A DNA stretch of 64,000 nt from an uncultured bacterium (GCA_948433885.1 CAOJEC010000002.1:8976-72975); one strand, 5' to 3'. Positions 15,001 to 54,946 are shown, counted from the first letter of the stretch. Numbers and translations: made by a program. Notes: generated by a model from the sequence alone, not told the origin.

Positions 15001-16137
15001 ATTTATAGATTGTCCATCTACAATCTTAGTTCCATCTTCAGTTTCAGCCCATACTTCAGGATCTGATTGATCGATTGAGAAATTGACTGATACTTCCCCA
15101 ACGGAGTTTCTAACTGTCAAAGTATATTTACCTTCTTCAGTAATTGCACCTCCACTATTGATAGGTCTCTCACTCGCTTCTTCACCTTCTACAGCATGTT
15201 TATACAATGTTGCTTCATCACCATAATAAGAAACTCTATAAGGTAACTCAGTGTATACACCACCTTCGGTAATTCTATTGATAACTGGTGGATTTGTTGT
15301 AGTAGTTTTTCCCAATGAAAATTTTGCTACTGTTTTATTTCCAGCTTCATCTGTAGCGACAACTTCATAAGAACCCGTTTCATTGATCGCATTAGAAGTC
15401 ATCTTATCACCATTGACAAGAACATCTTTCAAATTGTCATCTTGAACATTGAGTGTTACTCCTGTACCATAGTTAGAAACTACATCTTTACCATTGACAA
15501 GAATAACAGGAGCTTCTTTATCGATGTTTGTTGCACTTACATTTACAGTTGCATTCTTTTCTCCATCGAGTGAAACAACTTCGAAAGAATCTTCTCCATT
15601 TTCAGTATATATTTTTGTAAGCGTCTTTTTATCATTAGAAAGAACCCAATCTTCTTCATCTACTTTTTGAACCTGTTCACTAAAACGAACTTGAACTTCA
15701 ACGTTTCCATTCGTGTATCTAGTCGAACTTGGTAATACTTTATAAGTCAATATAGAAGTATTGCTATCCAAATTTGAATCATCAGATTGATTTTCATTCT
15801 CATCAACTTTGACAGAATCTGTCTCACATGTGAGACTTGGCTCATACTTATATGTACCATCTTCATTCGTAATAGTAACATATGAGTTATTTATACATTC
15901 GTCTTTCATACTAGAAACTAAACTTCCAGATTCTTGAAGACGAGAAGCACTCGTAACCAATTTAGAATCGATCGCCAAATTGTTGTTCTCGACATACTTC
16001 TTAGCAGATTCTACTAAGACGTCACTATAATCCCTTTCTTTGTATAATAAATTTGTGACCGTATAGGCACCAGCAACCACAGTTGTAACTGCAGTAACCC
16101 CCAAAACTACATTTTTAACTTTATTATTTGTTGCCAT
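1..16137 (-). CDS. Giant cell-surface repeat protein, at least 5,379 aa, with the 3' end beyond the left edge. It has an N-terminal signal/anchor, dozens of ~85-95 aa Ig-like modules ending in IDK(T/D/E)AP, DUF5011/HYR-like modules, two FIVAR-like helical blocks and DUF6273-like distal domains.
   Basis: ATG at 16135-16137 is preceded by GGAGG (rc of 16144-16148) with a 6-nt spacer. I translated the minus frame by hand over 1-9750 and 13900-16137 and spot-checked 10321, 11461, 12361 and 13081; no stop appeared and the frame is the same at both ends (16137 = 3 x 5379). The ORF track lists no bounded minus-strand ORF here except one out-of-frame 70-aa ORF, as expected for a single ORF leaving the window. 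N-terminus: MATNNKVKNVVLGVTAVTTVVAGAYTV (hydrophobic anchor). Recurrent motifs: TxTDxAGN...FTIDKTAP. Confidence 0.9.
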   Translation of the reverse strand, partial: MATNNKVKNVVLGVTAVTTVVAGAYTVTNLLYKERDYSDVLVESAKKYVENNNLAIDSKLVTSASRLQESGSLVSSMKDECINNSYVTITNEDGTYKYEPSLTCETDSVKVDENENQSDDSNLDSNTSILTYKVLPSSTRYTNGNVEVQVRFSEQVQKVDEEDWVLSNDKKTLTKIYTENGEDSFEVVSLDGEKNATVNVSATNIDKEAPVILVNGKDVVSNYGTGVTLNVQDDNLKDVLVNGDKMTSNAINETGSYEVVATDEAGNKTVAKFSLGKTTTTNPPVINRITEGGVYTELPYRVSYYGDEATLYKHAVEGEEASERPINSGGAITEEGKYTLTVRNSVGEVSVNFSIDQSDPEVWAETEDGTKIVDGQSINKDVIIHFKDKYSNVVAKSNTLYRDLKDGEVFTKEGKYVITVTDGAGHVVTFNFTINRQVPTVEGVVNGKFYSENRTITFDDKGGTVTATLDGLEISSGHVVSDEGEHTLVLTDDAGNSGTTIFTIDKTAPEFEGLDSDLITKDDFVVKAIDTNLKSVTVKKNGLVYANSEVTLDEEGLYTLIATDKAGLVTTRTVTIDKTAPSVLLNGSDKYEDKYENEVNIEISDLTKTTVMLDGKEFTDTKITASGNHVLEVTDEVGLTTRIEFTIYKDKPEVNIDGKLIDDETSTHYFNHDITINIVENPLELTATLNGEELSADEIANGKTIYAIDGKHNEYTLVVTDSIGRSTTIKFVIDQKNPTSSVGSQVYGEDILITFEDESGEVKAELDGVEIENGKVTLSEEGEHTLKLTDKAGNAIVYYPTIDKSTPDVKFIVDGEEIVIDDITKKLYFNKEVTITFEDKYSSVAAKLNNASIQEISDGKKDGSVVLNADGEYVLYLVDKGENELTVTVEIDSANPKGSISYENIDDATTDRLVDSIKMILTVDEEITFEDSNGYMWLKLNEMTEDGKYQYVYTVNDSVTGSIKLIDKAENEVSLPYSVTIDKTAPVGSITANTEEDTNKDVTLTLTVDEEVTITDNNGNVWNKLDELTEDGKYQYATTITENISGAIVIADANNNKTEISYKVENIDKIVDVDAPTYSTTEITNQDVIITIKAREELTFTDELDWTVLKLADGTYSYTATAIENISNTIVVSDKLGNTKNITYVVNNIDKGAPEVGGFDEDKFVEAENKYLFNTIVTPTFTEGTATLNGNVFVSGTDVTESGDYVLIVTDEAGNFTTINFTIDRTKPEAEITPSTTTPTNQAVILTIKTSEPVTMLTENKALEQIDDQTWTFKKSINGTITFKFTDAAGNVGTAKYTVENIDKVKPTISGVDNKGEYNENKNVTFEDDKPGVTATLNGEIFLGGEIADGKHVLIVTDAAGNTVTYRFTIDTIDPIITGVVDQGLYNKNVRPSYNEGTAVLTKKTVDEDGSIVDTVVADYVKGASITEDGIYTLTVTDGVGNDTVVTFTIDKTAPTAIITQDPTEDKYTNGAVILTFEASEPIEMLTESSALTKVSDTVYTFKKSINGTITFKFKDLAGNTNSIRYTVDNIDKTKPIVTGVENKGIYNAPVTIMYSDDHNVGAMLNDEFFTSGNTVSEDGKYTLVVTDEADNKVTYTFTIDTKAPEITGVEDKGVYNKNVRPSYNEGTGVLTKKVVDEDGAITEVVIEDYKKGAAITEDGIYTLTVTDGANNSTAVTFTIDKTAPTAEITPSTTAPTNQPVILTIKTSEPVTMLTENKALEQIDNQTWTFKKSINGTITFKFTDAAGNVGTARYTVENIDKEAPVGTITADVTAPTKGSVTLTLEVSEPIKDMSESDWTLVKDATLEDRTVRYTKTLSENTDGEIELTYTDLAGNKGSVKYEVSNIDNIPATVDVTYSTTEDTNEDVTIMINTSEKVSFEDELLNWTETRNEDGTYTYTATATENVSNTLTLTDEVGNVTENVVYSVNNIDKTSATAGVTYSTTEDTNEDVTITINTSKKVSFEDELLNWTETKNENGTYTYTATATENVSNTLTLVDHVGNETEVSYSVENIDKTPANATVSYNTTESTTGSVEITITSDKAVTFEDDKLEWSDAVEENGKFIYTATATENVSNTLTLVDHVGNITTVTYSVENIDHNVPTITIEGGNVIVTIKGMDITYPEVSATDKEDGELTVTADKTEVDINEAGEHTITYTATDSAGNTASETLTIRVINVDKYNKIAAYMEMLETNSTGGFYFSVNENKYDYTDKSWQTKKMYFDALTMMVDGTIKLNPNITQEYMDKQIETVENMELIPAEKDMYDYNTVIGKIAKLVESDYTKETWAELMTLKSESEVEGTLRLQSDVNYYSKALERLVKDLEKEPVVDTTEDYRDKYKEEDYSGYDAYQEALTELSTAVSEGILKSEYEARLEEIEEAILATRLPIDASAYEAILKDLEDNYEEADYTNESWTALQEKLNAVQAVIDRDGLRSEYNAALEQIDLNDLVANALDTTEFDNIVIEFGKLIETDYTAESWTAIENQIAKVQAIIDNNGLISEYEKELANLSLDNLEALAIDTTEFDKIVAEFEQLVESDYTSESYTFIKELIDEAKELIANGALRSEFKVVFDQIDLNDLVAIPKATNVTFVTDGANGYATIGNKLTLEFNSNTELDLTGTEVIINGEQVTVSKEGDLYRAVVIVDENTKEGKVTYTIKPVGPDGLEGAEVSVESDIIVDITEPTIEISGDKVNGQNNLYTSTVTVTVAESNVKEVYVNGVLDTSFVSPQDFTEDGTYTIKVIDQVGNEETVTFTIDTKAPNGTITSSNEDPTNEDITLTFEVDEEIIIIDGGNWTRVTNEDPTDKTIRYTLDVSENGIYEITYKDLAGHTGSASYEVENIDKTPAKTTLIPSTGGQTMNPVTLTLTSDEPLIITSTTDEWTASADKKTFTLVVTSNRTVTVEYTDLAGNAGSKTYTVSNIDTEVPTATIEADTTESTNQDITLTLNASEEIVITSTTDEWTKVTGSEYTLVVSDNRTVTVEFKDLAGHIGSVSYTVANIDKIPATADVTYSNTNLTNQDVVITLTSDEAVTFEDDKLEWSSAVEENGKFIYTATATENVSNTLTLVDHVGNTSTVSYTVENIDKTAPTATFVGVNPEGPTNSFKEITIRVDKVVKTTNTGTIPTVEVKVDEETGAKYTLLAAKRSNNGKYMFKFEDEAGNSGSFVYEVEGIDKEKPTAELYEITPEGPTNSHKTITIKTSEKVISLNTGTRVDVENKVDEEGNEYSLLTANRSNNGNFSFIFQDEAGNKGTFVIDVTGIDKEAPKGTITANKTDITNEEITLTLTVDEAIKDLSDSEWTLIKDATESDPSVQYQRTVSANGEIVVNYKDLAGNAGSASIEITNFDDVAPTITLTDENTKVEEGIYNGAVTVTVNDANADKVYVNGVLDAAFGTSKTFSEDGVYTIKAVDKAGNESSEVTFKIYKTAPTITIEGGNVIVTIKGMDITYPKVTATSSVDGELTVTADKTEVDINEAGEHTITYTATDSAGNTASETLTIRVINVDKYNKIAAYMEMLETNSTGGFYFSVNENKYDYTDKSWQTKKMYFDALTMMVDGTIKLNPNITQEYMDKQIETVENMELIPAEKDMYDYNTVIGKIAKLVESDYTKETWAELMTLKSESEVEGTLRLQSDVNYYSKALERLVKDLEKEPVVDTTEDYRDKYKEEDYSGYDAYQEALTELSTAVSEGILKSEYEARLEEIEEAILATRLPIDASAYEAILKDLEDNYEEADYTNESWTALQEKLNAVQAVIDRDGLRSEYNAALEQIDLSELVLIPVVVNPVITTTGNVGYAKAGDVIKLEFESNVELNVTATEDEPLVTTATINGQTAIVTKNAETGKYEASITITDSSKEGIVSYTITPVGPNQLVGTAIEPTDSDIVVDVTPADTNMIPSNTSPTVGPVVITLTSNEELIITSEGWTKVEGKNEYTSEVTANKVVTVEYTDLAGNYGSASIEVENIDLVDPTANIVANTSDGTNQDVILTLTPSEEIIITSTTDVWTKVEGKNEYTLTVSANREVVVEFEDLAGRKGSASYNVTNIDKTPAKATVSYTDADKVVTNKDVTITLTSDKELSAIRDTNGMNWIDSVQTENGSFVYSVTVSENVTGTLTLVDLVGNETIVEYAVSNIDKVLPEATITYVTGTTGNENIIDGDTPTKEDVTIKLTSTKKLVEIVDSNNMNWMNFVEGEVELSLNEKYTYRVTVSKNIAGTLNIKDEAGNTVEGIEYNVSGIDKDAPVATLEPNTTEMTNQDVKLTLNVTNEENVTIKNSNVNYELVDGKYVFTVEENTEVSVTIADAVGNETVVTYNVENIDKDAPNMTIIDKNTGEEVTSGMYIKGSVIVTVDEGIIYDNNAEVASGSEISSDGVHRIYAVDAAGNTTKVIYVGIDNTAPVVSGVEDGMIYDGEVTINATDMNSMTATMDGEAFTLGESYNVSGHHTLVVTDRVGNSTTVEFDIDTEAPVIELDGEQVNGIYTEGVTVNVTDDNIDTIMNGEVEITNGSTIDEDGTHTITATDKAGHTVSVTFTIDTKDPVIEGFEDGKTYSEAITVTVSDANLVSITLADGTTIESGATFTEDGTYSITAVDAAGHSVTKTFTIDSLPPVVTGVEDGKVYTDDVTLEFDKGTATVNGETVESGTVLSDGKYTVVVTSDAGKKTELSFIVDTKAPVINGFDDESHYSVDVTVNVEDHNIVSIKNNGEEITNGTTFTEDGVYVITATDIVGREVTKTFTIDKTDPNIAISGTSINNNGIYTGDVTISVEDANISTIVDKDGNEVEGNATFTEDGTYTITATDKAGNETTVTFTIDNASPVVSGVEDGEVYGEKVTVSFDKGTATLNGVEFTNGTEVSDGRYELVVTGENGKTTSVTFYVDTLPPEITSIKDGMIYGNDVTIEFNDATTKPIAKLDGKTVQNGDVISKEGNHTLIVIDEAGNSTSVTFTIDKTAPELEIVDNKGVKHKEDFEVTLEADKVNKFENFEYNVTDRDGASVSVDINGVVDLATLGDNYTLTYKATDDVGNTRVITVTVKVKDTTAPTITLGGNGSAIEVKYGSSFADTYGATAEDTFDGELEVKTSHNVNVYEVGTYEITYTATDASGNETTEKRTVKVVSTTATDMFKEENSCTDGEQCYATNSTDNYIWYSGHLWRVVKVNADGTLRIVTEESATGFSFDDNSSVFTGSHAERWLNNVFYPSLNNASTIVSTGEFCSEKMTSLTNVRYTCSANSVVKSKVGLLTIDEYNILGGANGFLNNGERYFTMTPTSEDTAWVVEETGRKERGYYVNEPYAMRPVININPVDILKGRGTAADPYVIDEGNKASVGSNLTNRSTGEYVNFGGKAWRIVSTSNEGTKLIADNYLTTNDGYVNIEFGTVGVFNTTSGIGKYLNT
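4839..5778 (-). repeat. 940-bp perfect direct repeat, copy B, inside the giant ORF (FIVAR-like helical block plus part of a DUF5011-like module)
   Basis: I compared it line by line with 8808-9747 and found it identical. Mismatches occur at 4838/8807 and 5779/9748. Confidence 0.9.
8808..9747 (-). repeat. 940-bp perfect direct repeat, copy A
   Basis: The offset to copy B is 3,969 bp (3 x 1,323), so the two copies are in frame. Confidence 0.9.
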
Positions 16138-16167
16138 AATAAACCTCCTAAATATTTCGCAAATATT

Positions 16168-16196
16168 ATTCTATCATTTACGTAACATTTTGTCAA
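16168..16196 (-). promoter_or_regulatory. Sigma-A-type promoter of the giant surface-protein gene
   Basis: On the minus strand, TTGACA (rc of 16191-16196), an exact 17-nt spacer, then TAGAAT (rc of 16168-16173), about 30 nt upstream of the ATG. Confidence 0.55.
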
Positions 16197-25648: not shown

Positions 25649-26818
25649 TTATTTATCCTTTTTGATCTTGACGACTATCTGATACATATCTTCAAAATCG
25701 TATTCTTCCATTTCTACACGGAAACCATTTTGCTCAGCTCCTCGGACTGCGCCTCTTATACTGTTAATTTGATCTCCTATATTCTTACTCGAATCCTGAG
25801 TTTCCACCGTAGCACTCGGACCTCCGAACATTGAATCCATATTTTGATTTAAAGGTGTAGTATTAGGAGGAACGATATCACCAAACATATCAAAAGTTTC
25901 TATCGTCTCAGGCTCACTAACTGAAACATTCAGACTTGGATCCACGGGTGTAATTTGATTTGCATCTTGCTGTGGAGCTCCTACTTGCTCGCCTGTAAAA
26001 GGATTGAAACTTACAGGTGGCACGAATTCTTCCTCTCCTATTGTCAAATTAGGAGCACTAGTTTCCAAATCCGTTGGTGGTTCCATAGCAAAACCAAAAA
26101 GATTTTTTGTCGCTTGATTTTGTCCACTGACAGTTGTATCCATTTCATTCATATTGTTCATTTCTACACGTGCGCCTCCTGTCGAAGATTCTGCTGCACT
26201 TAGAGCGGCAGCTACTCCTTGTGACATTTTCTTTATTTCATTATCTAACTGTTTGACCGTCAACCTCTCTTTTACGATTCGGTTCAACATTTTCTTTTGA
26301 TCGTCAGGATTGGCGATTTGCAACAAACTGCGAGCATGACGTTCACTTATTTGTTCGTTCAAAAGAGCATTTTGAACTTCATCACAAAGATTTAGAAGTC
26401 TCAACTTATTTGCAATAGTCGGCTGTGATACGCCCAATTTTTTTGCAAGTTCATCTTGAGTTATATAACCTCTTTGCAACAAATTCTTATAACTCTGAGC
26501 TTCTTCGATACTAGAAAGATTTTTTCGCTGTATGTTTTCGATCAACGCAATCTCGGCACTTTCATTATCGGTAAGTTCACGTACAATAGCAGGTACTTTT
26601 TTTAATCCTGCCATACATGAAGCCTTGTACCTACGTTCTCCAGCAATTATTTCATACTTATTTCCGACTTTGCGGAGCACTAAAGGCTGTATGACCCCAT
26701 GCACTTTTATCGAATCGGATAGTTCTTGTAATGCCTTTTCATCGAAAGTAAGCCTAGGCTGAAATCTATTAGGAATAATATCTTCGACAAATATTTCTTG
26801 CACTTGTTCATTATTCAT
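25649..26818 (-). CDS. noc: ParB-family protein in the noc position (Noc-like), with a ~150-aa low-complexity insert and a short N-terminus
   Basis: ParB N-domain (IIPNRFQPR, GERRYKA). The HTH region SQPTIANKLRLLNL...ISERHARSL resembles B. subtilis Noc rather than Spo0J. The C-terminal end INSIRGAV...FRVEMEEYDFEDMYQIVVKIKK resembles the Noc C-terminus. It lies directly downstream of rsmG. Confidence 0.8.
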   Translation of the reverse strand: MNNEQVQEIFVEDIIPNRFQPRLTFDEKALQELSDSIKVHGVIQPLVLRKVGNKYEIIAGERRYKASCMAGLKKVPAIVRELTDNESAEIALIENIQRKNLSSIEEAQSYKNLLQRGYITQDELAKKLGVSQPTIANKLRLLNLCDEVQNALLNEQISERHARSLLQIANPDDQKKMLNRIVKERLTVKQLDNEIKKMSQGVAAALSAAESSTGGARVEMNNMNEMDTTVSGQNQATKNLFGFAMEPPTDLETSAPNLTIGEEEFVPPVSFNPFTGEQVGAPQQDANQITPVDPSLNVSVSEPETIETFDMFGDIVPPNTTPLNQNMDSMFGGPSATVETQDSSKNIGDQINSIRGAVRGAEQNGFRVEMEEYDFEDMYQIVVKIKKDK

Positions 26819-32837: not shown

Positions 32838-32876
32838 AAGGTACCTCCTAGAATAAAAACCACTACAAAGAGTGGT

Positions 32877-32999
32877 TTACTTACAAAGCACTTTGCGGCC
32901 TTTTTTTCTTCTAGATTTTAAAATATTGCTTTCTTTTCTAGCAAAGAAACCGTGCTTCTTACTCTTTTTACGATTATTTGGTTGATAAGTTCTCTTCAT
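32877..32999 (-). CDS. rpmH: 50S ribosomal protein L34 (40 aa; below the ORF-track cutoff)
   Basis: My translation: [45 protein letters not shown] lies upstream (rc of 33008-33012). Confidence 0.85.
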
Positions 33000-33103
33000 T
33001 TTTTGCACCTCCACATCTAAAATTCAAATGTATTATATTATACCGCAGTATAAAAAGTCAAGAACTAACGAGCGATTAACTTTTCAACAAATTTTTCAAC
33101 ATC

Positions 33104-33219
33104 ATTTCCACATCTTGTTGATAAATCTTCCACATTGTAGAAAATGCAAAATTGTGGAAACTGTGGATAAAAACTTTTTTTCAATTAAACTCTACAAATT
33201 TTAACACAAGTTATCCACA
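33104..33219. promoter_or_regulatory. oriC part 1: DnaA-box cluster upstream of dnaA
   Basis: Perfect boxes TGTGGATAA at 33162-33170 and TTATCCACA at 33211-33219. Near-boxes at 33104-33112 (ATTTCCACA), about 33128-33136 (TCTTCCACA) and 33153-33161 (TGTGGAAAC). Confidence 0.8.
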
Positions 33220-33324
33220 AAATTTGTCGAAAATTGTTGTAGATAACTATTTTTTGAAAAATCTATCTTTACCTTTTTTTTATTTTAAGATACAATGAAA
33301 TTACTAGAAACCGGGGTGAGGTTC

Positions 33325-34731
33325 ATGGCTGAAGAGAACAATTTAGTTTGGGAAAATTTTATTGGTTTACTTAAAAATCGCATCTCTACTGTCTCGATCA
33401 ACTCCTGGTTTAAATACTGCAAAATTTACAAAATAGACGATGCCGTCCAAGACAACAAATCTATCAAAGTTGTCACGATCATGACGAGCTCACAATATAT
33501 AAAGGATGCTCTCATAAAAAGATACTTAGAAACTATCGAAGAATTGATGGAATCGATTTTAGGAAAAAATTGTAATATCGAATTCGTACTCGAAGAAGAG
33601 CTTAATCAAGAACGAATTGAAGAACAAAAAGAATCGCCACCTATCGAACCGACTACAGTTGTGGAAAAACCGGTCAGTTATCAACAAAATTTTGAAACGA
33701 ATCTTTCACCAAAATACACTTTTGAAAATTTCATTGTTGGAGAAAATTCAAATCGTCTAGCATACGAAGGAGCGAGACATGTAGCTGAACAACCTGGAAA
33801 ATTGTTCAATCCATTTTTTATTCATGGTAAAAGTGGTCTCGGTAAGACCCACCTCATGCATGCCATTGGAAATTACATTACAGCTCATTCCAACAAGAAA
33901 GTTTTATATGTTACAAGTGAAAGATTTAAGTCGGATTTTACTACGATTAATATGAATAAAGATTCCAAAAGTATCCAAATGTTCAAAGAAAAATATAGAG
34001 GAATAGATGTTCTGATGATCGACGATATTCAATTTTTAGAAAAGGCTGAAAAGACTCAACAGGAATTCTTCCATACTTTTAATACACTTTATGATATGAA
34101 TAAACAGATCATCATCACATCTGATCGTAGTCCAAATGACTTGAAGTTACTAGAAGAAAGATTGATAACGCGTTTCAGTTGGGGACTGACAGTAAATATA
34201 TATCCACCGGATATCGATTTGAAAAAAAGAATCGTCAAAAATAAGATGGCTGGTCATGATGTAGCCAATTTAGTAGACGATGAAGTTGTCGAATTTATTG
34301 CTAACAACTGCGAAAATGATGTTAGACATATCGAGGGAACCGTCACAAGACTTTATGCATATGCAGCCATGATGAGCCCACATAAAATAGACTTAGAATT
34401 TGCAAACGAAGCATTGAGAGACTATTTAAAAAGTTCAGTTTACATGGATTCAAATATCGCAAAAATACAAAAAGCAGTCGCGGATTATTATAAGATAACA
34501 GTCGAAGACCTGAAGAGTAAAAAAAGAACTGCCAATATCAACTATCCACGACAAATTGCAATTTATCTATGTAGAAATTACACTGACGAATCTTTTCCGA
34601 AGATCGGACTTGAGTTCGGTAATCGCGATCATTCGACAATTATGTATGCATGTGATAAAATTGAAGCAGATCTCAAAATAAACAATCAGCTGAAAGAGAT
34701 AATTAGAGAGATCAAAAATAATATTGGGTAA
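33325..34731 (+). CDS. dnaA: Chromosomal replication initiator DnaA
   Basis: AAA+ Walker A (GKSGLGKTHL) and the domain IV motif (YLCRNYTDESFPKIGLEFGNRDHSTIMYA). The start at M11 follows GGTGAGG. Confidence 0.95.
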   Translation: MAEENNLVWENFIGLLKNRISTVSINSWFKYCKIYKIDDAVQDNKSIKVVTIMTSSQYIKDALIKRYLETIEELMESILGKNCNIEFVLEEELNQERIEEQKESPPIEPTTVVEKPVSYQQNFETNLSPKYTFENFIVGENSNRLAYEGARHVAEQPGKLFNPFFIHGKSGLGKTHLMHAIGNYITAHSNKKVLYVTSERFKSDFTTINMNKDSKSIQMFKEKYRGIDVLMIDDIQFLEKAEKTQQEFFHTFNTLYDMNKQIIITSDRSPNDLKLLEERLITRFSWGLTVNIYPPDIDLKKRIVKNKMAGHDVANLVDDEVVEFIANNCENDVRHIEGTVTRLYAYAAMMSPHKIDLEFANEALRDYLKSSVYMDSNIAKIQKAVADYYKITVEDLKSKKRTANINYPRQIAIYLCRNYTDESFPKIGLEFGNRDHSTIMYACDKIEADLKINNQLKEIIREIKNNIG

Positions 34732-34750
34732 ACTGTTGATAAACATGAAG

Positions 34751-34862
34751 TTTTCCACAAGTTTTCTACAGGGTTTAAATTCAATTAAATGTGGACAAAA
34801 GACCACTTTTCCACAAATTCCACAAAACATATAAATAATAATAAATATATAATAAATAAGAA
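34751..34862. promoter_or_regulatory. oriC part 2: DnaA boxes plus an AT-rich unwinding region between dnaA and dnaN
   Basis: TTTTCCACA at 34751-34759 and 34807-34815, TGTGGACAA at 34790-34798 and AATTCCACA at 34816-34824. These are followed by catataaataataataaatatataataaataag, which is nearly 100% AT and contains TAATAATAA. Confidence 0.7.
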
Positions 34863-36134: not shown

Positions 36135-36174
36135 TCGAAATAGTGTATAAGGGTATGGCAAGGAGGTGATATAT

Positions 36175-36642
36175 ATGAACGATAAGTACACTATAAATGC
36201 AGATACTTTGGCAATTATACCGATCAGTAAAAAGAAAACTAGAGTATACGAAAATGATACAGTATTGACCATCAATAGAAATGCTAATAAAATAATCGCC
36301 GATAACTGTGAATATTTTGGAAGTTCTTACGCAGGAAGAAAAAAAGGAACTTTGGAATTGATTGGAGTGACTCACAAAGCACCTATAATAATCGAAGATT
36401 CTAACAGTTTAATCTTTTTTCCTACATCTAGCCCTCGTCTCAACGACTGTGGTTGGATTTCGCTTAACAATTTGGACTCTTATAAAGGTTATGCTGATGA
36501 TAGTATTTTGAGTTTTCAAAACAATCTAAAATTGCAAGTAAATGTATCAAATCGCATCATAGACAATCAAGTTTTGAGAGCGACAAGATTGGAAGCAATA
36601 ATTCGCAAAAGAAAAAACATAAAAAAAACTCCAAATAAGTAA
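36175..36642 (+). CDS. comK: ComK-family competence transcription factor
   Basis: YFGSSYAGRKKGT and HKAPIIIEDSNSLIFFPTSSPRLNDCGWIS closely match B. subtilis ComK (FFGSSYAGRKAGT; HKPPIMVDPSNQIFLFPT...CGWIS). AAGGAGG lies 8 nt upstream of the ATG at 36175. Confidence 0.85.
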   Translation: MNDKYTINADTLAIIPISKKKTRVYENDTVLTINRNANKIIADNCEYFGSSYAGRKKGTLELIGVTHKAPIIIEDSNSLIFFPTSSPRLNDCGWISLNNLDSYKGYADDSILSFQNNLKLQVNVSNRIIDNQVLRATRLEAIIRKRKNIKKTPNK

Positions 36643-39771: not shown

Positions 39772-42387
39772 ATGGAAGAAGAAAATAAAGAAAATTTACA
39801 AGAAAATATTCAAACCAATGAAGACGAGCAACTCGTCATCGATCGCACCCCTACAAGAGATAAAATAGATCACAATGATATTGTCGATGAAATCGAGAAT
39901 TCATTTATCAAATACTCTCTAAGTGTCATCACAGCGCGTGCGTTGCCAGACCTTCGAGATGGATTGAAACCAGTTCATAGAAGAATACTTTACTCTATGT
40001 ATGATTCGGGATACACACCAGATAAGCCACATAAAAAATGTGCCCGTATTGTCGGTGACGTCATCGGTAAATACCACCCTCATGGCGATTCATCGATTTA
40101 CGACGCCATGGTTCGTATGGCTCAAGATTTCAGTCTACGTTATATGTTAGTAGACGGTCACGGAAACTTCGGTAATATAAATGGAGATAGTCCCGCAGCT
40201 TATCGTTATACGGAATCTAGAATGGCAAAGATATCTCTCGAAATGCTTCGTGATATAAACAAAAATACTGTCGATTTCGAGGATAATTTCGACGGTCTAG
40301 AGCAAGAACCTAAAGTTCTACCATCTAGATTTCCAAATATCTTAGTTAATGGTACGACAGGTATTGCAGTCGGTATGGCAACCAACATTCCACCACACAA
40401 CTTAGGAGAAGTAATAGACGGATGTATTGCTTATATCGACAACCCTGAAATAGATACGATGGGATTGATGGAATATATTAAAGGACCAGATTTTCCTACA
40501 GGAGCGATAATTCTTGGAAACAGTGGAATACGTAAAGCATACGAAACAGGACGAGGAAGTATAACGATCCGAAGTAATGCTATTATCGAAGAAAAACACG
40601 GTAAAACGTACATCGTTATAGATGAAGTACCTTATGGACTCAATACGAACTCTCTTAAAGAAAAAGTTGCAAATTTAGTACATAATAAAGTCCTAGATGG
40701 AATATCGGATTATCATACAGACTTAAAAAATGGATTGAAAATAACTATCACGCTCAAAAGAGATGCAAATCCTCAAGTCGTATTGAATAATTTGTATAAA
40801 CATACTGAATTTCAAACTACATACGGTATCCTGTTCATAATGTTGGATATGGGTGTACCAAAAACCTTGGGATTAAAAGAAATAATTAGCAAATATATCG
40901 ATCACCAACGAGAAGTTATCATCAGAAGAACGCGATTTGAACTAGAAAAAGCAGAAAAACGTGTTCACATATTGGAAGGTTATAAGATCGCCCTAGACAA
41001 TATCGATGAAGTGATCAAAATAATTAAAGAAGCTGAAAGCGATTCAAATGCAAAAGAAAAATTGATAAAGCGATTTGGATTTACTGAAATTCAAGCGGAT
41101 AGCATCTTGGAATTGAAGTTACGTCGTTTGACAGGATTAGAAAGAGCAAAAATCGAAGAAGAATTGAAAAACTTACTAGCTCTTATCGAAGAATTGAAGA
41201 GCATTCTAGCTTCAGAACAAAAAGTTAATGACATAATTAAAAAAGAATTAACTGAAATAAAAGATAAATACGCAGATGAAAGACGTACTAAGATAGATAT
41301 GACTGCAATCGATTTTATTGAGGATGAATCATTGATACCTGAAGAAAATAGTATGATTACTCTAACAGAAAAGGGATACATCAAGAGACTTGCAGCAGAC
41401 ACTTATAAGACACAAAATCGTGGTGGTGTTGGCGTAAAGGGTATAAGTACAAATGAGGAAGATAATGTAAAATTGATGGTCAATGTATCTACACATGACT
41501 ATATACTTTTCTTTACAAATAAAGGTAAAGTATACCGTATCAAGGGATACGAAATACCAGAGTTCAATAGACAATCGAAAGGCTTGCCGATTATCAATCT
41601 TTTACATATAGAAAAAGACGAAGCAATAAGCTCTATAATAAAAATTGGTAAAGATGAACCAGAACTAAAATACCTGTTATTTGCGACTAAAAAAGGCGTA
41701 GTCAAACGTACGGCCATCGAAGACTTTGAAAATATCAGACAAACCGGTAAGATGAGTATTACTTTAAAAGATGATGATGAACTAATAGCAGTTAAAAAAA
41801 CAACTGGCGAAAACAAAGTTTTACTAGGAAGCACGAACGGACGTATGGTTTTGTTTGATGAATCTGAAATTAGAGTTATGGGTAGAACGGCATCAGGAGT
41901 ACGAGGAATCAATATGCCTGATGGAGAATGTATATGCGCTGACGTTTGTGATATGGACACTAATTTATTGATCGTCACCAAAAAGGGTTACGGAAAACGT
42001 ACATTTGTACAGGAGTTTAGAGAAACACGTCGTGGAAGTAAAGGAGTAAAAGCTCTAAATATAACTGAAAAAAATGGTGGTATAGCTTCATTCAACATTA
42101 TCGACGACGAAAAAGATATTGTTATAATTACGGATTCCGGAATGGTAATCAGATTAGATTCTACGACAATATCTCAACTTGGACGCAACGCCCAAGGTGT
42201 AAGACTGATTAATCTGAAAGATAATCAAATTGTCTCTTCAATTTCTATTGTGGAAAAAATAATGGAGGAAACAGGAAACAAAGAAAATTTAACTGTGGAC
42301 AACTCAATAACTGATAATATTGAAATTGCTGTGGAAAACTCTGAAAAAGAAATTCAAGAAAGTGCTGTGGAAAACGAACAAGAATAA
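39772..42387 (+). CDS. gyrA: DNA gyrase subunit A
   Basis: QRDR-type motif ([17 protein letters not shown]), the catalytic Tyr region (AAYRYTESR) and a beta-pinwheel C-terminal domain. Acidic C-terminal tail. Confidence 0.97.
42249..42374 (+). promoter_or_regulatory. Four co-oriented DnaA-box-like 9-mers inside the last 140 bp of gyrA
   Basis: TGTGGAAAA at 42249-42257, 42330-42338 and 42366-42374. TGTGGACAA at 42294-42302. Confidence 0.5.
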
Positions 42388-42426
42388 AAAAAAATAGGTA
42401 TGAAAAACTCCCTATTCTTTTTTTAT

Positions 42427-42446
42427 ATTATTTCCCGGGAAATAAT
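42427..42446. promoter_or_regulatory. Noc-binding-site (NBS) palindrome 1
   Basis: ATTATTTCCCGGGAAATAAT is a perfect 20-bp palindrome containing the B. subtilis NBS consensus ATTTCCCGGGAAAT. Confidence 0.75.
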
Positions 42447-42464
42447 GGTTGAATCTACCTGCGG

Positions 42465-42504
42465 AAATTTACAATCTTTTGTATATACGAAAGATTGTAA
42501 ATTT
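42465..42504. repeat. Perfect 15-bp inverted repeat with a 10-nt loop
   Basis: AAATTTACAATCTTT - tgtatatacg - AAAGATTGTAAATTT. Confidence 0.8.
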
Positions 42505-42526
42505 AGTACTTGTAAAGAAAATTGGA

Positions 42527-42544
42527 ATGTTACATGTGAAACAT
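42527..42544. promoter_or_regulatory. Degenerate parS-like site within a 36-bp palindrome (42518-42553)
   Basis: ATGTTaCAtGTGaAACAT has 3 mismatches to the local perfect copies. It is flanked by 14-bp arms AAAATTGGAATGTT / AACATTCCAATTTT. Confidence 0.45.
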
Positions 42545-42686
42545 TCCAATTTTAAATTATCATTTAAATATCACCTAATATAAGATACTTCCAGGAAATA
42601 TTATAATAAGAAAATAAAGTAAAAAGTATATATGATCTTTAAAGTTTAAATAACTATAAATACAGATTTAATATTTATATGCATTT

Positions 42687-42704
42687 ATGTTCCACGTGAA
42701 ACAT
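42687..42704. promoter_or_regulatory. parS site a
   Basis: The core TGTTCCACGTGAAACA is identical to the B. subtilis parS consensus. An extra half-site GTGGAACA lies at 42710-42717. Confidence 0.8.
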
Positions 42705-42742
42705 CACAAGTGGAACAAAAAATGATATTTTTAATATTGTAA

Positions 42743-42760
42743 TTATTTCCCGGGAAATAA
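42743..42760. promoter_or_regulatory. NBS palindrome 2
   Basis: TTATTTCCCGGGAAATAA is a perfect 18-bp palindrome. Confidence 0.75.
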
Positions 42761-42785
42761 AAATATAGGTATTTTTCCACAGCAC

Positions 42786-42803
42786 ATGTTCCACGTGGAA
42801 CAT
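42786..42803. promoter_or_regulatory. parS site b
   Basis: ATGTTCCACGTGGAACAT is a perfect 18-bp palindrome. TTTTCCACA lies just upstream at 42773-42781. Confidence 0.8.
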
Positions 42804-42958
42804 TAGATTTTGACATAGTAAAGTTTAGATATAATTAGTCTAAGTAATATTTTATTTAAAATCAAATTCTCAGTTGTATTAAAAATAATTATAAATTTAT
42901 TTTAATACTATTAAGAGTTAAATTGGTTGTACTCTTCTTACTACTTTTCCACAACTAG

Positions 42959-42976
42959 ATGTTCCACGTGGAACAT
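42959..42976. promoter_or_regulatory. parS site c
   Basis: ATGTTCCACGTGGAACAT is perfect. TTTTCCACA lies at 42945-42953. Confidence 0.8.
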
Positions 42977-43140
42977 GATAGTATTAAGTCAACGCTTTGT
43001 TTTTTATTAGCTCATTTCTAGAAAATGCAGCACAAAACCGAATTACTAAGCATCTAGTTAACATTGGTTAAATTAATATAAAATCTTAATGATCATATTG
43101 ATAGTTGAAAATGTTTTTTATAATATTCTTTCCACAACAA

Positions 43141-43160
43141 AATGTTCCACGTGGAACATT
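43141..43160. promoter_or_regulatory. parS site d
   Basis: AATGTTCCACGTGGAACATT is a perfect 20-bp palindrome. CTTTCCACA lies at 43128-43136. Confidence 0.8.
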
Positions 43161-43220
43161 GTATAATACTTGGTAATAAAATTTATAAAACACTTGAATA
43201 TACGTACATTTGTATGCAAC

Positions 43221-43236
43221 TATTTCCCGGGAAATA
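43221..43236. promoter_or_regulatory. NBS palindrome 3
   Basis: TATTTCCCGGGAAATA is a perfect 16-bp palindrome, 8 nt upstream of the ffs -35 element. Confidence 0.75.
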
Positions 43237-43243
43237 ATCCTAC

Positions 43244-43272
43244 TTGAATTTTATAATTTAATATGATAAAAT
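43244..43272 (+). promoter_or_regulatory. Putative promoter of the SRP RNA
   Basis: TTGAAT (43244-43249), a 17-nt spacer, then TAAAAT (43267-43272). This places the start near G43278/79. Confidence 0.5.
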
Positions 43273-43277
43273 TTAAA

Positions 43278-43352
43278 GGCACAACGAACTATTGTCGAAC
43301 CTGGTCAGGATTGGAAAATAGCAGCCATAAGATGAGAATTCGTGTGTGCTTT
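43278..43352 (+). ncRNA. ffs: Small (4.5S-type) signal recognition particle RNA
   Basis: cctGGTCAGGattGGAAaatAGCAGCCataagatgagaattcgtgtgtgc parallels E. coli 4.5S ccaGGUCAGGuccGGAAggaAGCAGCCaaggcagaugacgcgugugcc. It has a GGAA tetraloop, and the closing stem GCACA(A)CGAA / TTCGTGTGTGC has one bulge. The ends are approximate. Confidence 0.8.
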
Positions 43353-43367
43353 TATTTTGGAGGAATT

Positions 43368-43787
43368 ATGGAAAAATATATTTTGGATCGACTCTTCGAA
43401 TTGGCAAATAAATCATTAGAGGAAAATGAGTTTCCAGTAAGTGCAATTGTTTATGACCAAACAGGAATATTAGGTGAAGGTTATAATATAAGGAATTCTA
43501 CCAATAAAACTACCGATCATGCAGAAATAATAGCAATAGAAAATGCTAATAAAAATGTAAAAAATTGGAATTTAGAGAACAAATGTATGGTAGTAACTTT
43601 AGAGCCTTGTGAAATGTGCAAAAGTGTCATTAAAGAAGCACGTCTATCCGAAGTTTACTTTCTCATACCGAGATATAAGTACAAAAAACAATATAAAAAT
43701 ACTACAATAAAACATCTTCCCTTACAGGATGAAAGATTAACATCATATAATCAAAATATAACGACCTTTTTTTCAAATAAACGGTAG
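43368..43787 (+). CDS. tadA: tRNA-specific adenosine deaminase
   Basis: CDA-fold motifs HAE (TTDHAEIIAI) and PCxxC (LEPCEMCKSV). The ATG at 43368 follows GGAGG. The track's upstream extension overlaps the SRP RNA. Confidence 0.9.
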   Translation: MEKYILDRLFELANKSLEENEFPVSAIVYDQTGILGEGYNIRNSTNKTTDHAEIIAIENANKNVKNWNLENKCMVVTLEPCEMCKSVIKEARLSEVYFLIPRYKYKKQYKNTTIKHLPLQDERLTSYNQNITTFFSNKR

Positions 43788-49393: not shown

Positions 49394-52300
49394 AAATCAT
49401 CACCGATAAATTTCGTTATAAAAAGGACCACAATGTATACGGTCTTACAAAAGAATTGATCACTCTTTATATATCTAACTATTTTGAAGAAAACGACGAA
49501 AACGTTTTGATTTTGACGAGTACACTTTATGAAGCGAATAATATATATAAAGCACTACAGGCATACACGAGCGATGTTCTGTTTTTTCCGATGGACGATT
49601 TTTTGGCATCAGTTGCGCTCGCTATTTCACCGGATTTGAAAATAAAAAGACTTGAAACATTGGAAAAATTGCTCAACGAAAAGAAAAAACATCTTGTCGT
49701 GACCTCATTGATGGGATATTTAAAATTTTTGCCTAATAAAGAAGAACAACATAGTCTCGTCATAGATACATTGTCACAAAATATTTCCCGGGAAATAATT
49801 TTAAACAAATTAGAAGACTTTGGATACAACCGTGAATCTCTAGTGACGACGACTGGTGAATATGCTGTACGAGGATATATAGTAGACGTATATCCGGTCG
49901 ATCGAGAAAAGCCTGTTCGAATCGAGTTTTTTGGAGATGAAGTCGAATCGATAAAAGAGTTTGACGAAAATACTCAAAGAACTACAACTACGATTGAACG
50001 ATTTGAAATTAAAAAATTTAATGAAACTATATCTACGGACGCCAATTCACTCTTGGACTATATGAATGATCGAACAGTCTTTATAATTGATGAACAAAGA
50101 GTATGCACATCATATAAAAATTTACAAGAAGAGATGCTTGAATACTGTACTAGCAAAGAAATTCCTGTTTCAACAAAATTCATGTTCGGCATGGAAGAGA
50201 TAGCAATAAATAAGGTTTATAAGATCGAAACATTGAACACCATAGAAGATCCAAAATCACTAATTTATGTTTCTAAGGAAATGGAAAATTTTGGAGGTAA
50301 TCTTGAAAATCTAGACACATTTGTTAAAAGGATGCTCGAAAAGAGTACCATTATCTTTGCTTTAGAAAATACAAAACAAATTAACGAAATAAAATCACTT
50401 TTTGATGATGCACTCATTACGAACGAAGAACACATTCATTTGAGAAAGATAAATATCATCGAAAAGAAAATGAACCACGGCTTTGCATTTGAAAATATCT
50501 TAGTTATCACACCTTATGATATAGACAAAAGCACTCGAACCGATGTCAAATACAAAAACACCATAAAAATAGGCCGTAAAGTTAAAACTTACACAGAACT
50601 TGCCAATGGAGATTATATAGTACATGAACAACATGGAATAGGTATTTACCGTGGTCTCAAAGCTATCAAAAATGGCGAATTCGTAAAAGATTATATCGAA
50701 CTGGAATACGAAGGAAAAGACAAAGTATACCTTCCAATCGATAAAATTGATAGACTTTACAAATACTCTTCGAGTGTCGGAAAGGCACCGAAATTAAACA
50801 AACTAAACAGTACGGCATGGGCCAAGAAGAAAAACGAAACAAGAAAAAGAATCCGCGATATCTCGGGCGAACTTTTAGAACTTTATTCTTCAAGACAAAA
50901 AGTAATCGGGCCTGCATTCGCAGATTTTGACGAAGAAATAGCATTCGCTTTTGATTTTCCTTATGCTTTAACTGACGACCAGGAAAAGACGATAAAAGAA
51001 ATAGACTACGATTTAAAATCGCCAGCTCCGATGGATAGACTACTATGCGGGGATGTGGGTTATGGAAAAACTGAAGTCGCTTTTAGAGCGATGTTCAAAA
51101 CTGTCATAAACGGCTTTCAAGTATCTTATCTATGTCCAACAACAATTTTATCTAAACAACAATATACGAGTGCCTTGGAAAGATTCAAAAGATTCCCCAT
51201 TCGTATAGAACTATTGAATAGGCACATTTCGACAGCCAAAGTAAATAAAATTTTAAAAGAGTTAGCAGAAGGTAAAATAGACATAGTCATTGGAACCCAT
51301 AAATTGTTAAATGACAAAATCGAATATAAAAATTTGGGATTACTAGTGATCGATGAAGAACAAAGATTTGGAGTTTCTCATAAAGAAAAAATTAAAAAGA
51401 TGAAAAATGACATTAACGTCTTGACCTTGTCGGCTACACCTATCCCGAGAACATTGAAAATGGCAATGAGTGGGTTACGAAGTCTATCAGTGCTAGATAC
51501 GCCACCAGTGAATCGCTATCCAATTCAAACTTACGTTATTGAAGAAAATGATCTCATCATGAAGGATGCTATATACAAAGAGATGACTAGATCTGGGCAA
51601 GTGTTCCTACTTATCAATAGAATCGATGAATTATCTTCATACAAGACGAAAATTCAAAAACTTATCCCGGAAGCGAGAATCGTATGTGGACACGGACAAA
51701 TGACCTCTGAAGAATTGAACGATATAATGGAAAGTTTCATTCGAGGAGAACACGACATACTGATATGTACTACTATCATAGAAACAGGCATCGATATTGC
51801 CAATGTCAATACTATAATAATTTTGGATGCCGATCACTTTGGTCTAAGCCAATTGTATCAAATTCGAGGCCGCGTCGGACGAAGTGATAAAATAGCGTAT
51901 GCTTACTTGATGTATAAACCTGCGAGACTATTGACTGAAACGGCAACTAAACGACTAGAGTCTATTAAAGAGTTTACTGAATTGGGAAGTGGATATAAAA
52001 TAGCAATGAGAGACTTGGCCATTCGAGGTGCAGGGGATTTGCTAGGTAGCGAGCAAGCAGGTTTCATAGAGGCAGTAGGACTCGATTTATATACAAAGAT
52101 GGTAAACGAAGAGATGAATCGCTTAGAAGGCAACTTCGTCGAAGAAACAGAAGATTCTACCTCTACCTTCAACACGAATACACATATCGAAGATGAGTAT
52201 GTCGAAGATGAAAGTATAAAAATTGAAATACACAAACTCATAAATACTATCAAAACTAAAACAGACTTATTGAAAGTAAAAAATGAACTGATCGATAGAT

Positions 52301-53165: not shown

Positions 53166-53197
53166 TAAAAAAAAGATGATGTGTTATCATTGTCATA

Positions 53198-53393
53198 TTG
53201 AACGGCGAAGAAAAGAGTAAATTTTGAGAAGTGCATAGAGAGCTATTGGACGGTGTAAAATAGTGACTAATCGACATTGAACATGGTTTTGGAGTTCAAA
53301 CGTATACCTGCGTTAAAGGATAAAGAGCATGATAATCATGAATTAAGGTGGTACCGCGGGAGTGTTCTCGTCCTTAAATTCATGATTTTTTTA
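53198..53393 (+). promoter_or_regulatory. T-box riboswitch leader (Met specifier) controlling metG
   Basis: The Stem I base is TTGAAC...GTTCAA, with an AGAGAG element. The candidate specifier AUG is at 53283-53285. The T-box sequence AATTAAGGTGGTACCGCGGG is at 53341-53360. The terminator arms are 53335-53348 and 53372-53386, followed by T7. Confidence 0.85.
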
Positions 53394-53413: not shown

Positions 53414-54946
53414 ATGGAAAAAAAGTATTACATTACGACCCCAATTTATTATCCATCGGCTAATTTTCACATAGGGCATTGTTACAGTACGATAATCGCC
53501 GACTCACTTGCACGCTATAAAAGACTAGATGGATACGACACTTATTTTTTGACAGGGAGTGATGAACACGGACAAAAAATAGAGAAGAAAGCTGAAGAAG
53601 CAGGTGTTGCACCAAAAGAGTATGTCGATAAAATCGTCGAAAATGCCAAAGATTTATGGAATAGTCTTGGCATAACTTATGATCGTTTCATCAGAACGAC
53701 CGATACTGACCATGTAGAAATAGTTGGAAACATTTTTAAAAAACTCTACGATCAGGATGATATATACAAAGGTACATACAAGGGATTATATTGTACACCG
53801 TGCGAATCTTTTTGGACTGAAACACAAGCCAAAGATGGCAAATGTCCCGACTGTGGACGCGAAGTTCATGAAGTAAGTGAAGAAGCCTATTTTTTAAAAC
53901 TATCAAAATACCAAAAAAGATTAGAAGAATATATCGAAACACATCCGAGCTTCATTCAACCTGAATCTCGTAAAAACGAAATGTTGAATAATTTTATCAA
54001 ACCTGGACTAGAAGACCTGTGTGTGTCTAGAACGAGTTTCAAATGGGGAATCCCAGTAACTTTCGATCCAGAACACGTCGTCTACGTTTGGCTCGATGCT
54101 CTATCTAACTATATTACGGCGTTAGGATATTCGACCGATAAAGATGAAAAATTCAAAAAGTTTTGGCCTGCCGACGTTCACATTGTTGGAAAAGAAATAG
54201 TTCGTTTTCATACGATCATATGGCCTATCATTTTGATGGCTCTCGATTTACCATTACCTGAAAAAGTATTTGGTCATGGGTGGCTCGTTATCGAAGGAAA
54301 CAAGATATCGAAAAGTCTCGGAAATTACAAGGATCCACGAGATTATATCGATAAATATGGAGTAGACCCAGTAAGATACTTCGTGTTAAGAGAAATACCT
54401 TTCGGCAATGATGGAAACTTCTCAGAAGAAGCACTTATCAATAGAACGAATAGCGATCTAGCCAACATTTGGGGTAATCTCGTTAATAGAACAATAGGCA
54501 TGGCCAATAAATATTTCGAAGGACAAATTGAAAACACTGAACAAGTCGAAGATGCTGATAAAGAATTACGAGAAAAATTATGTACTTTAAAAGCGAACAT
54601 TGATGAAAAAATCGATCATTTGCAAGTTTCAAAAGCTTTAGAGGAAATCTTCGAAGTATTGAGATTATCCAATAAATACATAGATGACACTGCCCCTTGG
54701 ATTTTGGCAAAAGATGAGACAAAAAAAACACGTTTACAAACGGTTCTCTACAATCTATTAGAAGCAATTCGTATTGCTGCCATACTTCTCAAAGCGTTTG
54801 TTCCAACAAGTGCTGAGGATGTTTTGAAACAGATCGGCAAAAACCAAGGTGATTTTCAAAATGCAACATACATCGAAAATGGAACATACTCAGTGACAAA
54901 AGAACCGCACCCTCTTTTTCAAAGAATAGAACTCCCTAATGAATAA
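53414..54946 (+). CDS. metG: Methionyl-tRNA synthetase (short form)
   Basis: HIGH (ANFHIGH), a KMSKS variant (KISKS) and a Zn knuckle (CTPCE...CPDCG). Confidence 0.95.
   Translation: MEKKYYITTPIYYPSANFHIGHCYSTIIADSLARYKRLDGYDTYFLTGSDEHGQKIEKKAEEAGVAPKEYVDKIVENAKDLWNSLGITYDRFIRTTDTDHVEIVGNIFKKLYDQDDIYKGTYKGLYCTPCESFWTETQAKDGKCPDCGREVHEVSEEAYFLKLSKYQKRLEEYIETHPSFIQPESRKNEMLNNFIKPGLEDLCVSRTSFKWGIPVTFDPEHVVYVWLDALSNYITALGYSTDKDEKFKKFWPADVHIVGKEIVRFHTIIWPIILMALDLPLPEKVFGHGWLVIEGNKISKSLGNYKDPRDYIDKYGVDPVRYFVLREIPFGNDGNFSEEALINRTNSDLANIWGNLVNRTIGMANKYFEGQIENTEQVEDADKELREKLCTLKANIDEKIDHLQVSKALEEIFEVLRLSNKYIDDTAPWILAKDETKKTRLQTVLYNLLEAIRIAAILLKAFVPTSAEDVLKQIGKNQGDFQNATYIENGTYSVTKEPHPLFQRIELPNE

Follow-up and report, generated by a model that had tools for sequence, protein, structure and literature searches.

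Interleaved parS sites, Noc-binding sites and DnaA boxes between gyrA and ffs mark a probable chromosomal centromere in an uncultured bacterium

The gap between gyrA and ffs, the gene for the signal recognition particle (SRP) RNA, in a 64,000-nucleotide stretch of DNA from an uncultured bacterium (GCA_948433885.1, CAOJEC010000002.1:8976-72975; this whole 64-kb stretch is called the window below) holds a dense array of parS sites, the palindromes bound by the partition protein ParB, interleaved with binding sites of the related protein Noc and with DnaA boxes. We consider it likely that this gap is a chromosomal centromere at which ParB would be loaded, and that it doubles as a loading site for Noc and, in this clade, as a cluster of DnaA boxes. 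A first-pass annotation of the window had read the palindromes as centromere-like, and this reading holds: the sites are canonical parS, they are origin-proximal, they occupy a single gap, and they are syntenic in relatives.

We searched both strands of the whole window for the parS pattern TGTTCCACGTG(G/A)AACA, also written TGTTCCACGTGRAACA. Perfect matches begin at 42688, 42787, 42960 and 43143, and a fifth copy at 42528 is decayed (TGTTACATGTGAAACA, two mismatches), its central CG having become TG; set against the 16-bp palindrome TGTTNCACGTGAAACA, the gap holds four perfect copies and one with one or two mismatches. The strand-matches number nine where 0.07 are expected (mean of 100 dinucleotide shuffles), and the search found no parS in the window outside the gyrA–ffs gap. 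The copy at 42688 is identical to the B. subtilis spo0J-type site TGTTCCACGTGAAACA, and those at 42787, 42960 and 43143 have the fully symmetric form, extended to a 20-bp palindrome at 43141-43160 and to 18 bp in the other two symmetric copies. Successive sites are separated irregularly (160, 99, 173 and 183 bp) by spacers that are unrelated to each other. The gap measures 883 bp, from the gyrA stop codon (42387) to ffs (43271), and no hidden gene was found in it, the longest open reading frames (ORFs) having at most 51 codons. The first-pass annotation had described a non-coding stretch with four parS 16-mers and a degenerate one, of which one equalled the B. subtilis consensus, three were symmetric over 18-20 bp and the degenerate copy sat at the centre of a 36-bp palindrome. 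All of these were recovered; its positions (42527, 42687, 42786, 42959 and 43141) refer to these very sites, with the flanking A taken as the starting letter, and its spacings of 160, 99, 173 and 182 bp are right once that way of counting is allowed for.

Two further kinds of motif, overlooked in that annotation, lie in the same gap. The first is the 16-bp Noc-binding site (NBS) TATTTCCCGGGAAATA, of which there are three perfect copies, at 42429, 42744 and 43221, all agreeing with the NBS palindrome ATTTCCCGGGAAAT; two more perfect copies lie elsewhere in the window, at 49783 and 54976 (five in total, three of them in the array), where chance would give about 0.25 even with up to two mismatches allowed. 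The second is the DnaA-box 9-mer. With N for NBS and P for parS, the gap reads N P P N P P P N, the first P being the decayed copy, with two N at the edges and one within. The features of the array are as follows.

42429-42444, no strand assigned: Noc-binding site 1, at the gyrA-side edge of the array, perfect 16-mer TATTTCCCGGGAAATA (repeat D3)
42518-42553, no strand assigned: 36-bp palindrome with the decayed parS TGTTACATGTGAAACA (42528-42543) at its centre (repeat I20; 17-nt arms, 94% complementary)
42688-42703, no strand assigned: parS 1, TGTTCCACGTGAAACA (pattern search and repeat analysis, I2 and I18)
42744-42759, no strand assigned: Noc-binding site 2, inside the array, perfect 16-mer
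42773-42802, plus strand: DnaA box TTTTCCACA (42773-42781), 5-nt gap, parS 2 TGTTCCACGTGGAACA (42787-42802) (repeat D1)
42945-42975, plus strand: DnaA box TTTTCCACA (42945-42953), 6-nt gap, parS 3 (42960-42975) (repeat D1)
43128-43158, plus strand: near-consensus DnaA box CTTTCCACA (43128-43136), 6-nt gap, parS 4 (43143-43158) (repeat D1)
43221-43236, no strand assigned: Noc-binding site 3, at the ffs-side edge of the array, perfect 16-mer

An extra half-site, GTGGAACA, is found at 42710-42717, 3' of parS 1. Noc site 1 and the decayed parS also flank a near-perfect 40-bp palindrome (42465-42504; halves AAATTTACAATCTTTTGTAT and ATACGAAAGATTGTAAATTT), which may be the terminator hairpin of gyrA. 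The 36-bp and 40-bp palindromes have no copy in the relatives and were seen in the window only.

The position of the array is conserved in relatives, which we represent by 80 genome-assembly loci found with the GyrA protein (GyrA identity 61-92%), all of them from metagenome-assembled genomes of uncultured gut Bacilli (labelled, among others, Candidatus Ventrenecus, Candidatus Coprovivens, Clostridium sp. CAG:710, CAG:433 and Acholeplasma sp. CAG:878). Together with the window these loci carry 348 perfect parS, every one of them just downstream of gyrA, and of about 400 parS-like sites (at most one mismatch) only one, itself a one-mismatch site, lies outside the gap in about 1.4 Mb of the relatives' flanks. 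Nearly all of the perfect sites (345/348) fit TGTT[C/T]CACGTG[G/A]AACA, variation that is within the tolerance of the known consensus, and the extended consensus across loci is aATGTTTCACGTGAAACATt. Complete gyrA–dnaX intervals contain 2-18 parS each, with the exception of L054, and ffs lies 3' of the array in 6/6 relatives tested. The L054 locus (22.5 kb) has a complete gyrA–dnaX interval of 670 bp with neither parS nor Noc sites, and its lineage may have lost both systems.

The sequence around the sites behaves differently. The window and its closest relative (92% GyrA identity) differ in how many sites they have and how these are spaced, and their spacers cannot be aligned, parS and Noc sites alone persisting as islands. 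Some species have true head-to-tail arrays, with 16 copies at 34 bp in L076, nine at 126 bp in L035 and a 136-bp unit in L053. Because the sites keep the same syntenic place down to 61% GyrA identity while the spacers turn over, we attribute their conservation to selection on protein-binding motifs within an array that itself turns over quickly. Chance, assembly artefact and spread in the manner of repetitive extragenic palindromic (REP) elements are excluded for all DNA examined, that is, for the window and the relatives' loci. Ten contigs end inside the array (L015, L026, L035, L040, L049, L050, L052, L055, L056 and L070), as if its repeats had defeated short reads, and true parS copy numbers may therefore exceed these counts.

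Noc sites accompany parS in 31 of the 64 complete arrays, often in a fixed register (parS-19 nt-NBS six times in L004; NBS-14 nt-parS five times in L037). We also scanned public metagenomes for parS 4-34 bp from a Noc site, and at least 120 contigs matched; among the matches listed, all but L173 and L183 are of low GC content (0.19-0.35), and nearly all of the low-GC contigs have gyrA and/or tadA-dnaX adjoining the sites. Since the matches come almost entirely from this context (gyrA, array, tadA-dnaX), close pairing of parS with Noc sites is essentially a hallmark of this locus. The sole clear juxtaposition outside the gyrA–ffs context among these matches is in an unrelated organism (L173:1553-4080, GC 0.49), where three parS and a Noc site lie just upstream of soj-spo0J. 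As for the Noc sites away from the array, the perfect one at 49783-49796 falls inside the mfd/TRCF gene (1072 aa), and Noc sites in L003 (17016), L004 (20312), L005 (19727) and L074 (20255) lie at a similar distance from gyrA, which suggests a conserved intragenic Noc site.

These data bear on whether the palindromes could instead be terminators or attenuators of gyrA, operators of ffs-tadA-dnaX, or REP-like selfish repeats. The array does separate a strongly expressed operon from an RNA gene, ParB can silence genes close by in some species (PMC7022226), and two parS copies score as terminator-like hairpins; the two predicted terminators are, however, the parS palindromes themselves, with T-rich sequence after the hairpin. 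A regulatory or selfish origin is hard to reconcile with an exact 16-mer, rather than a compensating stem, being kept over deep divergence, nor would it account for Noc sites that exactly match an experimentally defined protein site. An Rfam search of 42300-43450, at the gathering threshold and at E up to 1, returned ffs alone, and a consensus scan found promoter-like matches across the gap at the level of shuffled sequence. The first-pass annotation had named genome-wide, REP-like spread as one observation that would overturn its reading; in the window and in the 80 relatives the copies are confined to one gap. We regard this explanation as most improbable.

The genes on either side of the array and the origin of replication are placed in the window as follows.

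39772-42387, plus strand: gyrA, upstream boundary of the array (ORF list; GyrA homologues at 80 loci)
43244-43360, plus strand: promoter-like TTGAAT-17-TAAAAT with TG, then ffs (43271-43360), downstream boundary of the array (Rfam RF00169, 55.7 bits)
32838-34815, no strand assigned: oriC region, with boxes 5' of dnaA (33162, 33211), dnaA, and dnaA-dnaN boxes (34751, 34807) (box search, GC skew)

The gene order 3' of ffs is tadA (43368-43787), dnaX, ybaB, recR. The dnaA gene (33295-34731), two perfect DnaA boxes (33162, 33211) and the minimum of the cumulative GC skew at about 32-34 kb, where gene strand also switches in the dnaA region, place the array about 9 kb from oriC on the right replichore; the earlier description "next to oriC" is thus roughly right. 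The dnaA-dnaN spacer (34732-34815) is given as 57 bp, with TTTTCCACA at 34751 and 34807, and seemingly offers little room for the usual downstream half of a Firmicute oriC and an unwinding element.

The array has both the sequence and the position of a chromosomal parS centromere. It shares with the parS/Spo0J system of B. subtilis an identical 16-bp consensus, an origin-proximal position and a Firmicute host, and by analogy clamp loading dependent on cytidine triphosphate (CTP), spreading and recruitment of SMC would be expected here. The roughly ten sites of B. subtilis are, by contrast, scattered over hundreds of kb, many of them intragenic, and its spo0J adjoins noc and rsmG, whereas in the window the detectable sites fall within less than 1 kb of one gap (4-5 here, up to 18 in relatives) and neither spo0J nor soj was found near the origin. 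Outside the Firmicutes, where to our knowledge Noc is absent, Caulobacter, Pseudomonas (parS1-4), Corynebacterium, Streptomyces and Myxococcus likewise have several parS near oriC, in clusters that range in extent from several kb to about 200 kb and, as a rule, lie beside parAB. Against these clusters, as we know them, the array stands out by one site per 34-180 bp, by its place between gyrA and ffs and by interleaved Noc sites. Between 1 and 20-23 parS are recorded per genome in a review that treats the reason for their clustering as an open question (PMC7333895), and the Caulobacter centromere is described as lying 8 kb from ori and binding DnaA (PMC6667618). The tandem arrays of L076, L035 and L053, with one inverted-repeat ParB site per unit, recall sopC of the F plasmid (12 x 43-bp repeats), but the site is the chromosomal parS rather than a plasmid-specific one, and in the window the spacing is irregular (99-183 bp) and the spacers unrelated. 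The window array accordingly lacks the regular units and the mobile replicon of an iterated plasmid centromere, and its core-gene flanks and synteny across the lineage indicate that it is neither a plasmid nor an integrated element.

DnaA-box-type 9-mers stand 5-6 bp before three of the four perfect parS, on the gyrA side and on the plus strand (TTTTCCACA at 42773 and 42945, CTTTCCACA at 43128). Box and parS together form the 31-nt repeat unit of family D1, in which the unit at 43128 is 94% identical to that at 42946. We take TTTTCCACA to be plausibly a genuine box here, because the same variant occurs at the dnaA-dnaN junction. Four box-like 9-mers on the minus strand lie in the last 140 bp of gyrA (42249, 42294, 42330 and 42366); counted with at most one mismatch, there are six boxes at 42249-42953 in addition to CTTTCCACA at 43128, and four or more such boxes occur in no 1-kb bins of the window other than two at oriC and the one at this locus, which makes it a TTATCCACA-type cluster outside oriC. 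The 9-mers in gyrA, which face the array's plus-strand boxes, are spelled (TGTGGAAAA or TGTGGACAA) by the codons of an acidic GyrA tail with a repeated ...AVEN... motif; these last ~45 residues (codons ~826-868; 42249-42374) run past the point, at about residue 829, where the alignment of most relatives ends.

The pairing of box and parS recurs in 15 of 75 loci, mainly in the clade of the window and in L012, L022 and L035. Across loci, 24 perfect boxes (40 with at most one mismatch) stand at a distance of 0-8 bp from a parS, without exception on its gyrA side and in one orientation; the mirror side of parS has no perfect box, and positions farther out have about 0-1 each. A perfect TTATCCACA directly adjoins parS in L004 and lies 1 nt away in L012, and because relatives carry perfect boxes beside parS we read these 9-mers as DnaA boxes rather than as degenerate parS half-sites. 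The oriC-proximal DnaA-box clusters of B. subtilis are similar in having consensus or near-consensus boxes in intergenic DNA near, but outside, the origin, and they are functionally tied to Spo0J/Soj; the boxes here are fewer, are paired with parS at 0-8 bp in fixed orientation and occur in part of the lineage. We know of no description of such pairing in B. subtilis.

Could the locus, then, be primarily an element that titrates DnaA and controls initiation, comparable to datA and the B. subtilis clusters, with parS and Noc sites as accessories that modulate the access of DnaA? The window has two DnaA-box clusters besides this one, and the boxes near parS share a single orientation; in B. subtilis such clusters hold initiation back and show genetic interactions with spo0J (PMC3245932), and the Noc of S. 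aureus restrains initiation (PMC5540599). Yet the boxes are missing from the arrays of 60 of the 75 loci where parS is nearly universal, and inside the array of the window there are only two or three of them. Since boxes are rare and parS nearly universal among the relatives, the conserved core of the locus is parS, and we find a primary role in DnaA titration quite improbable.

The window contains a single gene of the ParB family, 16 kb from the array.

25649-26818, minus strand: Noc-type gene, 389 aa, adjoining rsmG (homology; specificity residues Q-K-N-R)

Its best solved relatives are the Noc structures 7NFU (1.8e-55) and 7OL9, slightly ahead of B. subtilis Spo0J 6SDK (4e-51), and alignment to the solved structures of Noc and Spo0J gives Q-K-N-R at the four specificity positions. 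A mutational study found that Q173 and R201 with one permissive lysine (K179 and/or K184) give NBS specificity, and that R173 is invariant among parS binders, Q173 removing a contact to parS guanine 1 (PMC7383237); the protein of the window has Q173, K179 and R201, the residues expected of a Noc paralogue. On the strength of its Noc-like matches and of Q-K-N-R we take its targets to be Noc sites rather than parS, and it is the presumed binder of the Noc sites in the gap. Its best 120 matches are all orthologues, 119 of them with Q-K-(N/S)-R, and the synteny rsmG-noc-PBP1 is conserved in relatives. The system thus resembles that of Bacillus and Staphylococcus in the identical core ATTTCCCGGGAAAT, in the specificity residues, in a Noc-like C-terminal domain and in a gene adjoining rsmG; it differs in having three sites within 0.8 kb, interleaved with parS, and a protein that scores below the NCBIfam cut-off for Noc (TIGR04285; 291.4 bits against 315, still the best-scoring family) and has no N-terminal amphipathic membrane-targeting helix. 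The ORF starts 15 residues before PNRFQPR, where B. subtilis Noc presumably has 39, with an in-frame stop 5 codons upstream and a good ribosome-binding site; the alignment begins at residue 25 of 7NFU, and the short N-terminus is found lineage-wide. So is a disordered or low-complexity linker of about 145 residues with a conserved ...ETFDMF... motif, i.e. (Y/I)E(T/I)FD(M/I), before the C-terminal domain.

One orthologue departs from this pattern. In another species, P0018 (L085:4681-5679; also L086 and L087) occupies the same rsmG-X-PBP1 locus. It is 332 aa long, its first 200 residues match the window's protein at 85% identity, and its specificity positions read R-K-N-G; the sequence is identical in three independent samples. 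R-K-N-G predicts binding to parS rather than to NBS, and on this prediction P0018 is a natural counterpart of the laboratory switch between ParB and Noc. RNA editing as the source of Q-to-R and R-to-G was considered and rejected, as several codon positions differ and synonymous divergence is ordinary. The gyrA array of this species was not found: the contigs stop short of it and none of the 80 loci belongs to the same species.

P0018 shows that the family can flip its specificity, and with a single ParB-family gene near the origin in the window and in its relatives one might suppose that a Noc-family protein, with no separate ParB, serves parS and Noc sites alike as a single-protein loading platform. 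The residues speak against this, as R173 is invariant in parS binders and the protein has the Q173 that abolishes the contact to guanine 1; moreover, parS is perfectly kept although 119 of the best 120 homologues have Q-K-(N/S)-R, which implies a distinct parS binder. We therefore judge such a one-protein arrangement unlikely.

The distinct binder was sought with B. subtilis Spo0J, Noc and Soj as tblastn queries, and the sole match was the gene adjacent to rsmG. Neither a canonical ParB (R173/G201) nor a chromosomal Soj/ParA was found in the window, in the relatives' noc neighbourhoods, in the 10 kb past the window's right end or at about 200 array loci, a search that reached from about -24 to +41 kb around oriC in lineage loci; among the metagenome array loci, soj-spo0J occurs only on the unrelated high-GC contig L173. 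The ParB genes of other Firmicutes, S. aureus among them, are located apart from noc. As parS is perfectly conserved in all species sampled, a parS-specific reader is probably encoded elsewhere in the genome. To the right of the window lie YabG, Veg and SpoVG genes, and L208 has an intact yabG-veg-spoVG. Two contigs that share an identical 1581-aa protein with the window (L209:14876-24746 and L210:6003-15873) have instead a truncated yabG (Peptidase_U57) followed by a ParA-type ATPase, a ParB_N-only protein, a SpaA-domain protein, a sortase and a large SNF2 helicase, a block that looks like the insertion of a mobile element. Its ParB_N-only protein was rejected as a candidate parS binder, as it has no ParB helix-turn-helix.

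If the gap is a centromere that loads ParB, each parS would nucleate a ParB dimer, which would close with CTP and then slide off the site, and at least four sites within 0.5 kb would multiply the loading rate and yield a dense partition complex. Spreading as far as is typical, this complex would extend over ffs, dnaX, gyrBA and oriC. Such a complex would organise and segregate origins and probably load SMC, as in other Firmicutes. Some Firmicutes lack ParA (PMC7333895); this lineage may lack it too, and SMC loading and origin organisation may then be the main output. The three Noc sites would load a Noc-type clamp whose spreading would also reach oriC; in S. aureus, Noc extends 8-10 kb outward from the sites it binds and keeps initiation in check (PMC5540599), and since the helix is missing here the Noc-type role may resemble this initiation control more than membrane tethering. 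With a DnaA box a few bases from parS the locus would also bind, and perhaps titrate, the replication initiator, and DnaA and ParB probably compete or cooperate at the composites. There are precedents for such coupling: B. subtilis DnaA-box clusters act with Spo0J/Soj on initiation (PMC3245932), DnaA is described as binding the Caulobacter centromere (Mera 2014, cited in PMC6667618), and Spo0J and Noc together block premature Z rings.

Several observations weigh against this interpretation. The Noc-type protein is without the helix that B. subtilis Noc needs, and classical nucleoid occlusion may not apply. The cognate parS-binding ParB is presumed rather than seen, the search having covered the origin region. 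As to the boxes, their adjacency to parS is limited to 15/75 loci, mostly the window's own clade, their counts overstate independent events because copies within a locus are duplicates, and TTTTCCACA is one mismatch off the consensus box and also resembles the parS half-site TGTTCCAC.

Three other features of the window are recorded here. An ORF between dnaN and recF (36166-36642, plus strand) has no NCBIfam match, its copy in a relative (L081:389-841) is annotated ComK (PF06338), and the B. subtilis gene at this position is, we assume, that of a small S4-like protein. An ordinary T-box leader (53196-53378, plus strand; Rfam, 109.6 bits) lies 5' of a class I aminoacyl-tRNA synthetase gene (53414-54946). 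On the minus strand an ORF of at least 5390 codons (1-16170) starts near 16170 and is cut by the window's left edge; it has a signal- or transmembrane-like N-terminus (MATNNKVKNVVLGVTAVTTVVAGAYTV...) and is presumably a giant surface protein.

A literature search returned no account in which loading sites of ParB and Noc alternate at distances of tens of bp, nor one of DnaA boxes within a few bases of parS, although such absence is no proof. The practical value of the array is modest; it also breaks metagenome assemblies at a predictable place. For the question of why parS sites cluster and what determines their number (PMC7333895), this lineage is an extreme natural case, with one short gap holding all detectable parS, 2-18 copies between related species, and with fast spacer turnover and tandem amplification in some of them. 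If all sites are occupied, the clamps and the initiator must interact, by roadblocking, competition or co-condensation, and this would be a direct physical link between the control of initiation, the segregation of origins and the control of division. We tentatively raise the possibility, which we hold to be doubtful, of a three-protein hub, peculiar to this lineage, in which ParB, a helix-less Noc and DnaA would be interdependent and would couple initiation, origin segregation and division, with Noc orthologues that switch between NBS (Q..R) and parS (R..G) and interleaved arrays as the cis-side record of such switching. The helix-less Noc together with an orthologue in which both switching residues have reverted to the ParB state provides a natural test of the specificity code derived in the laboratory.

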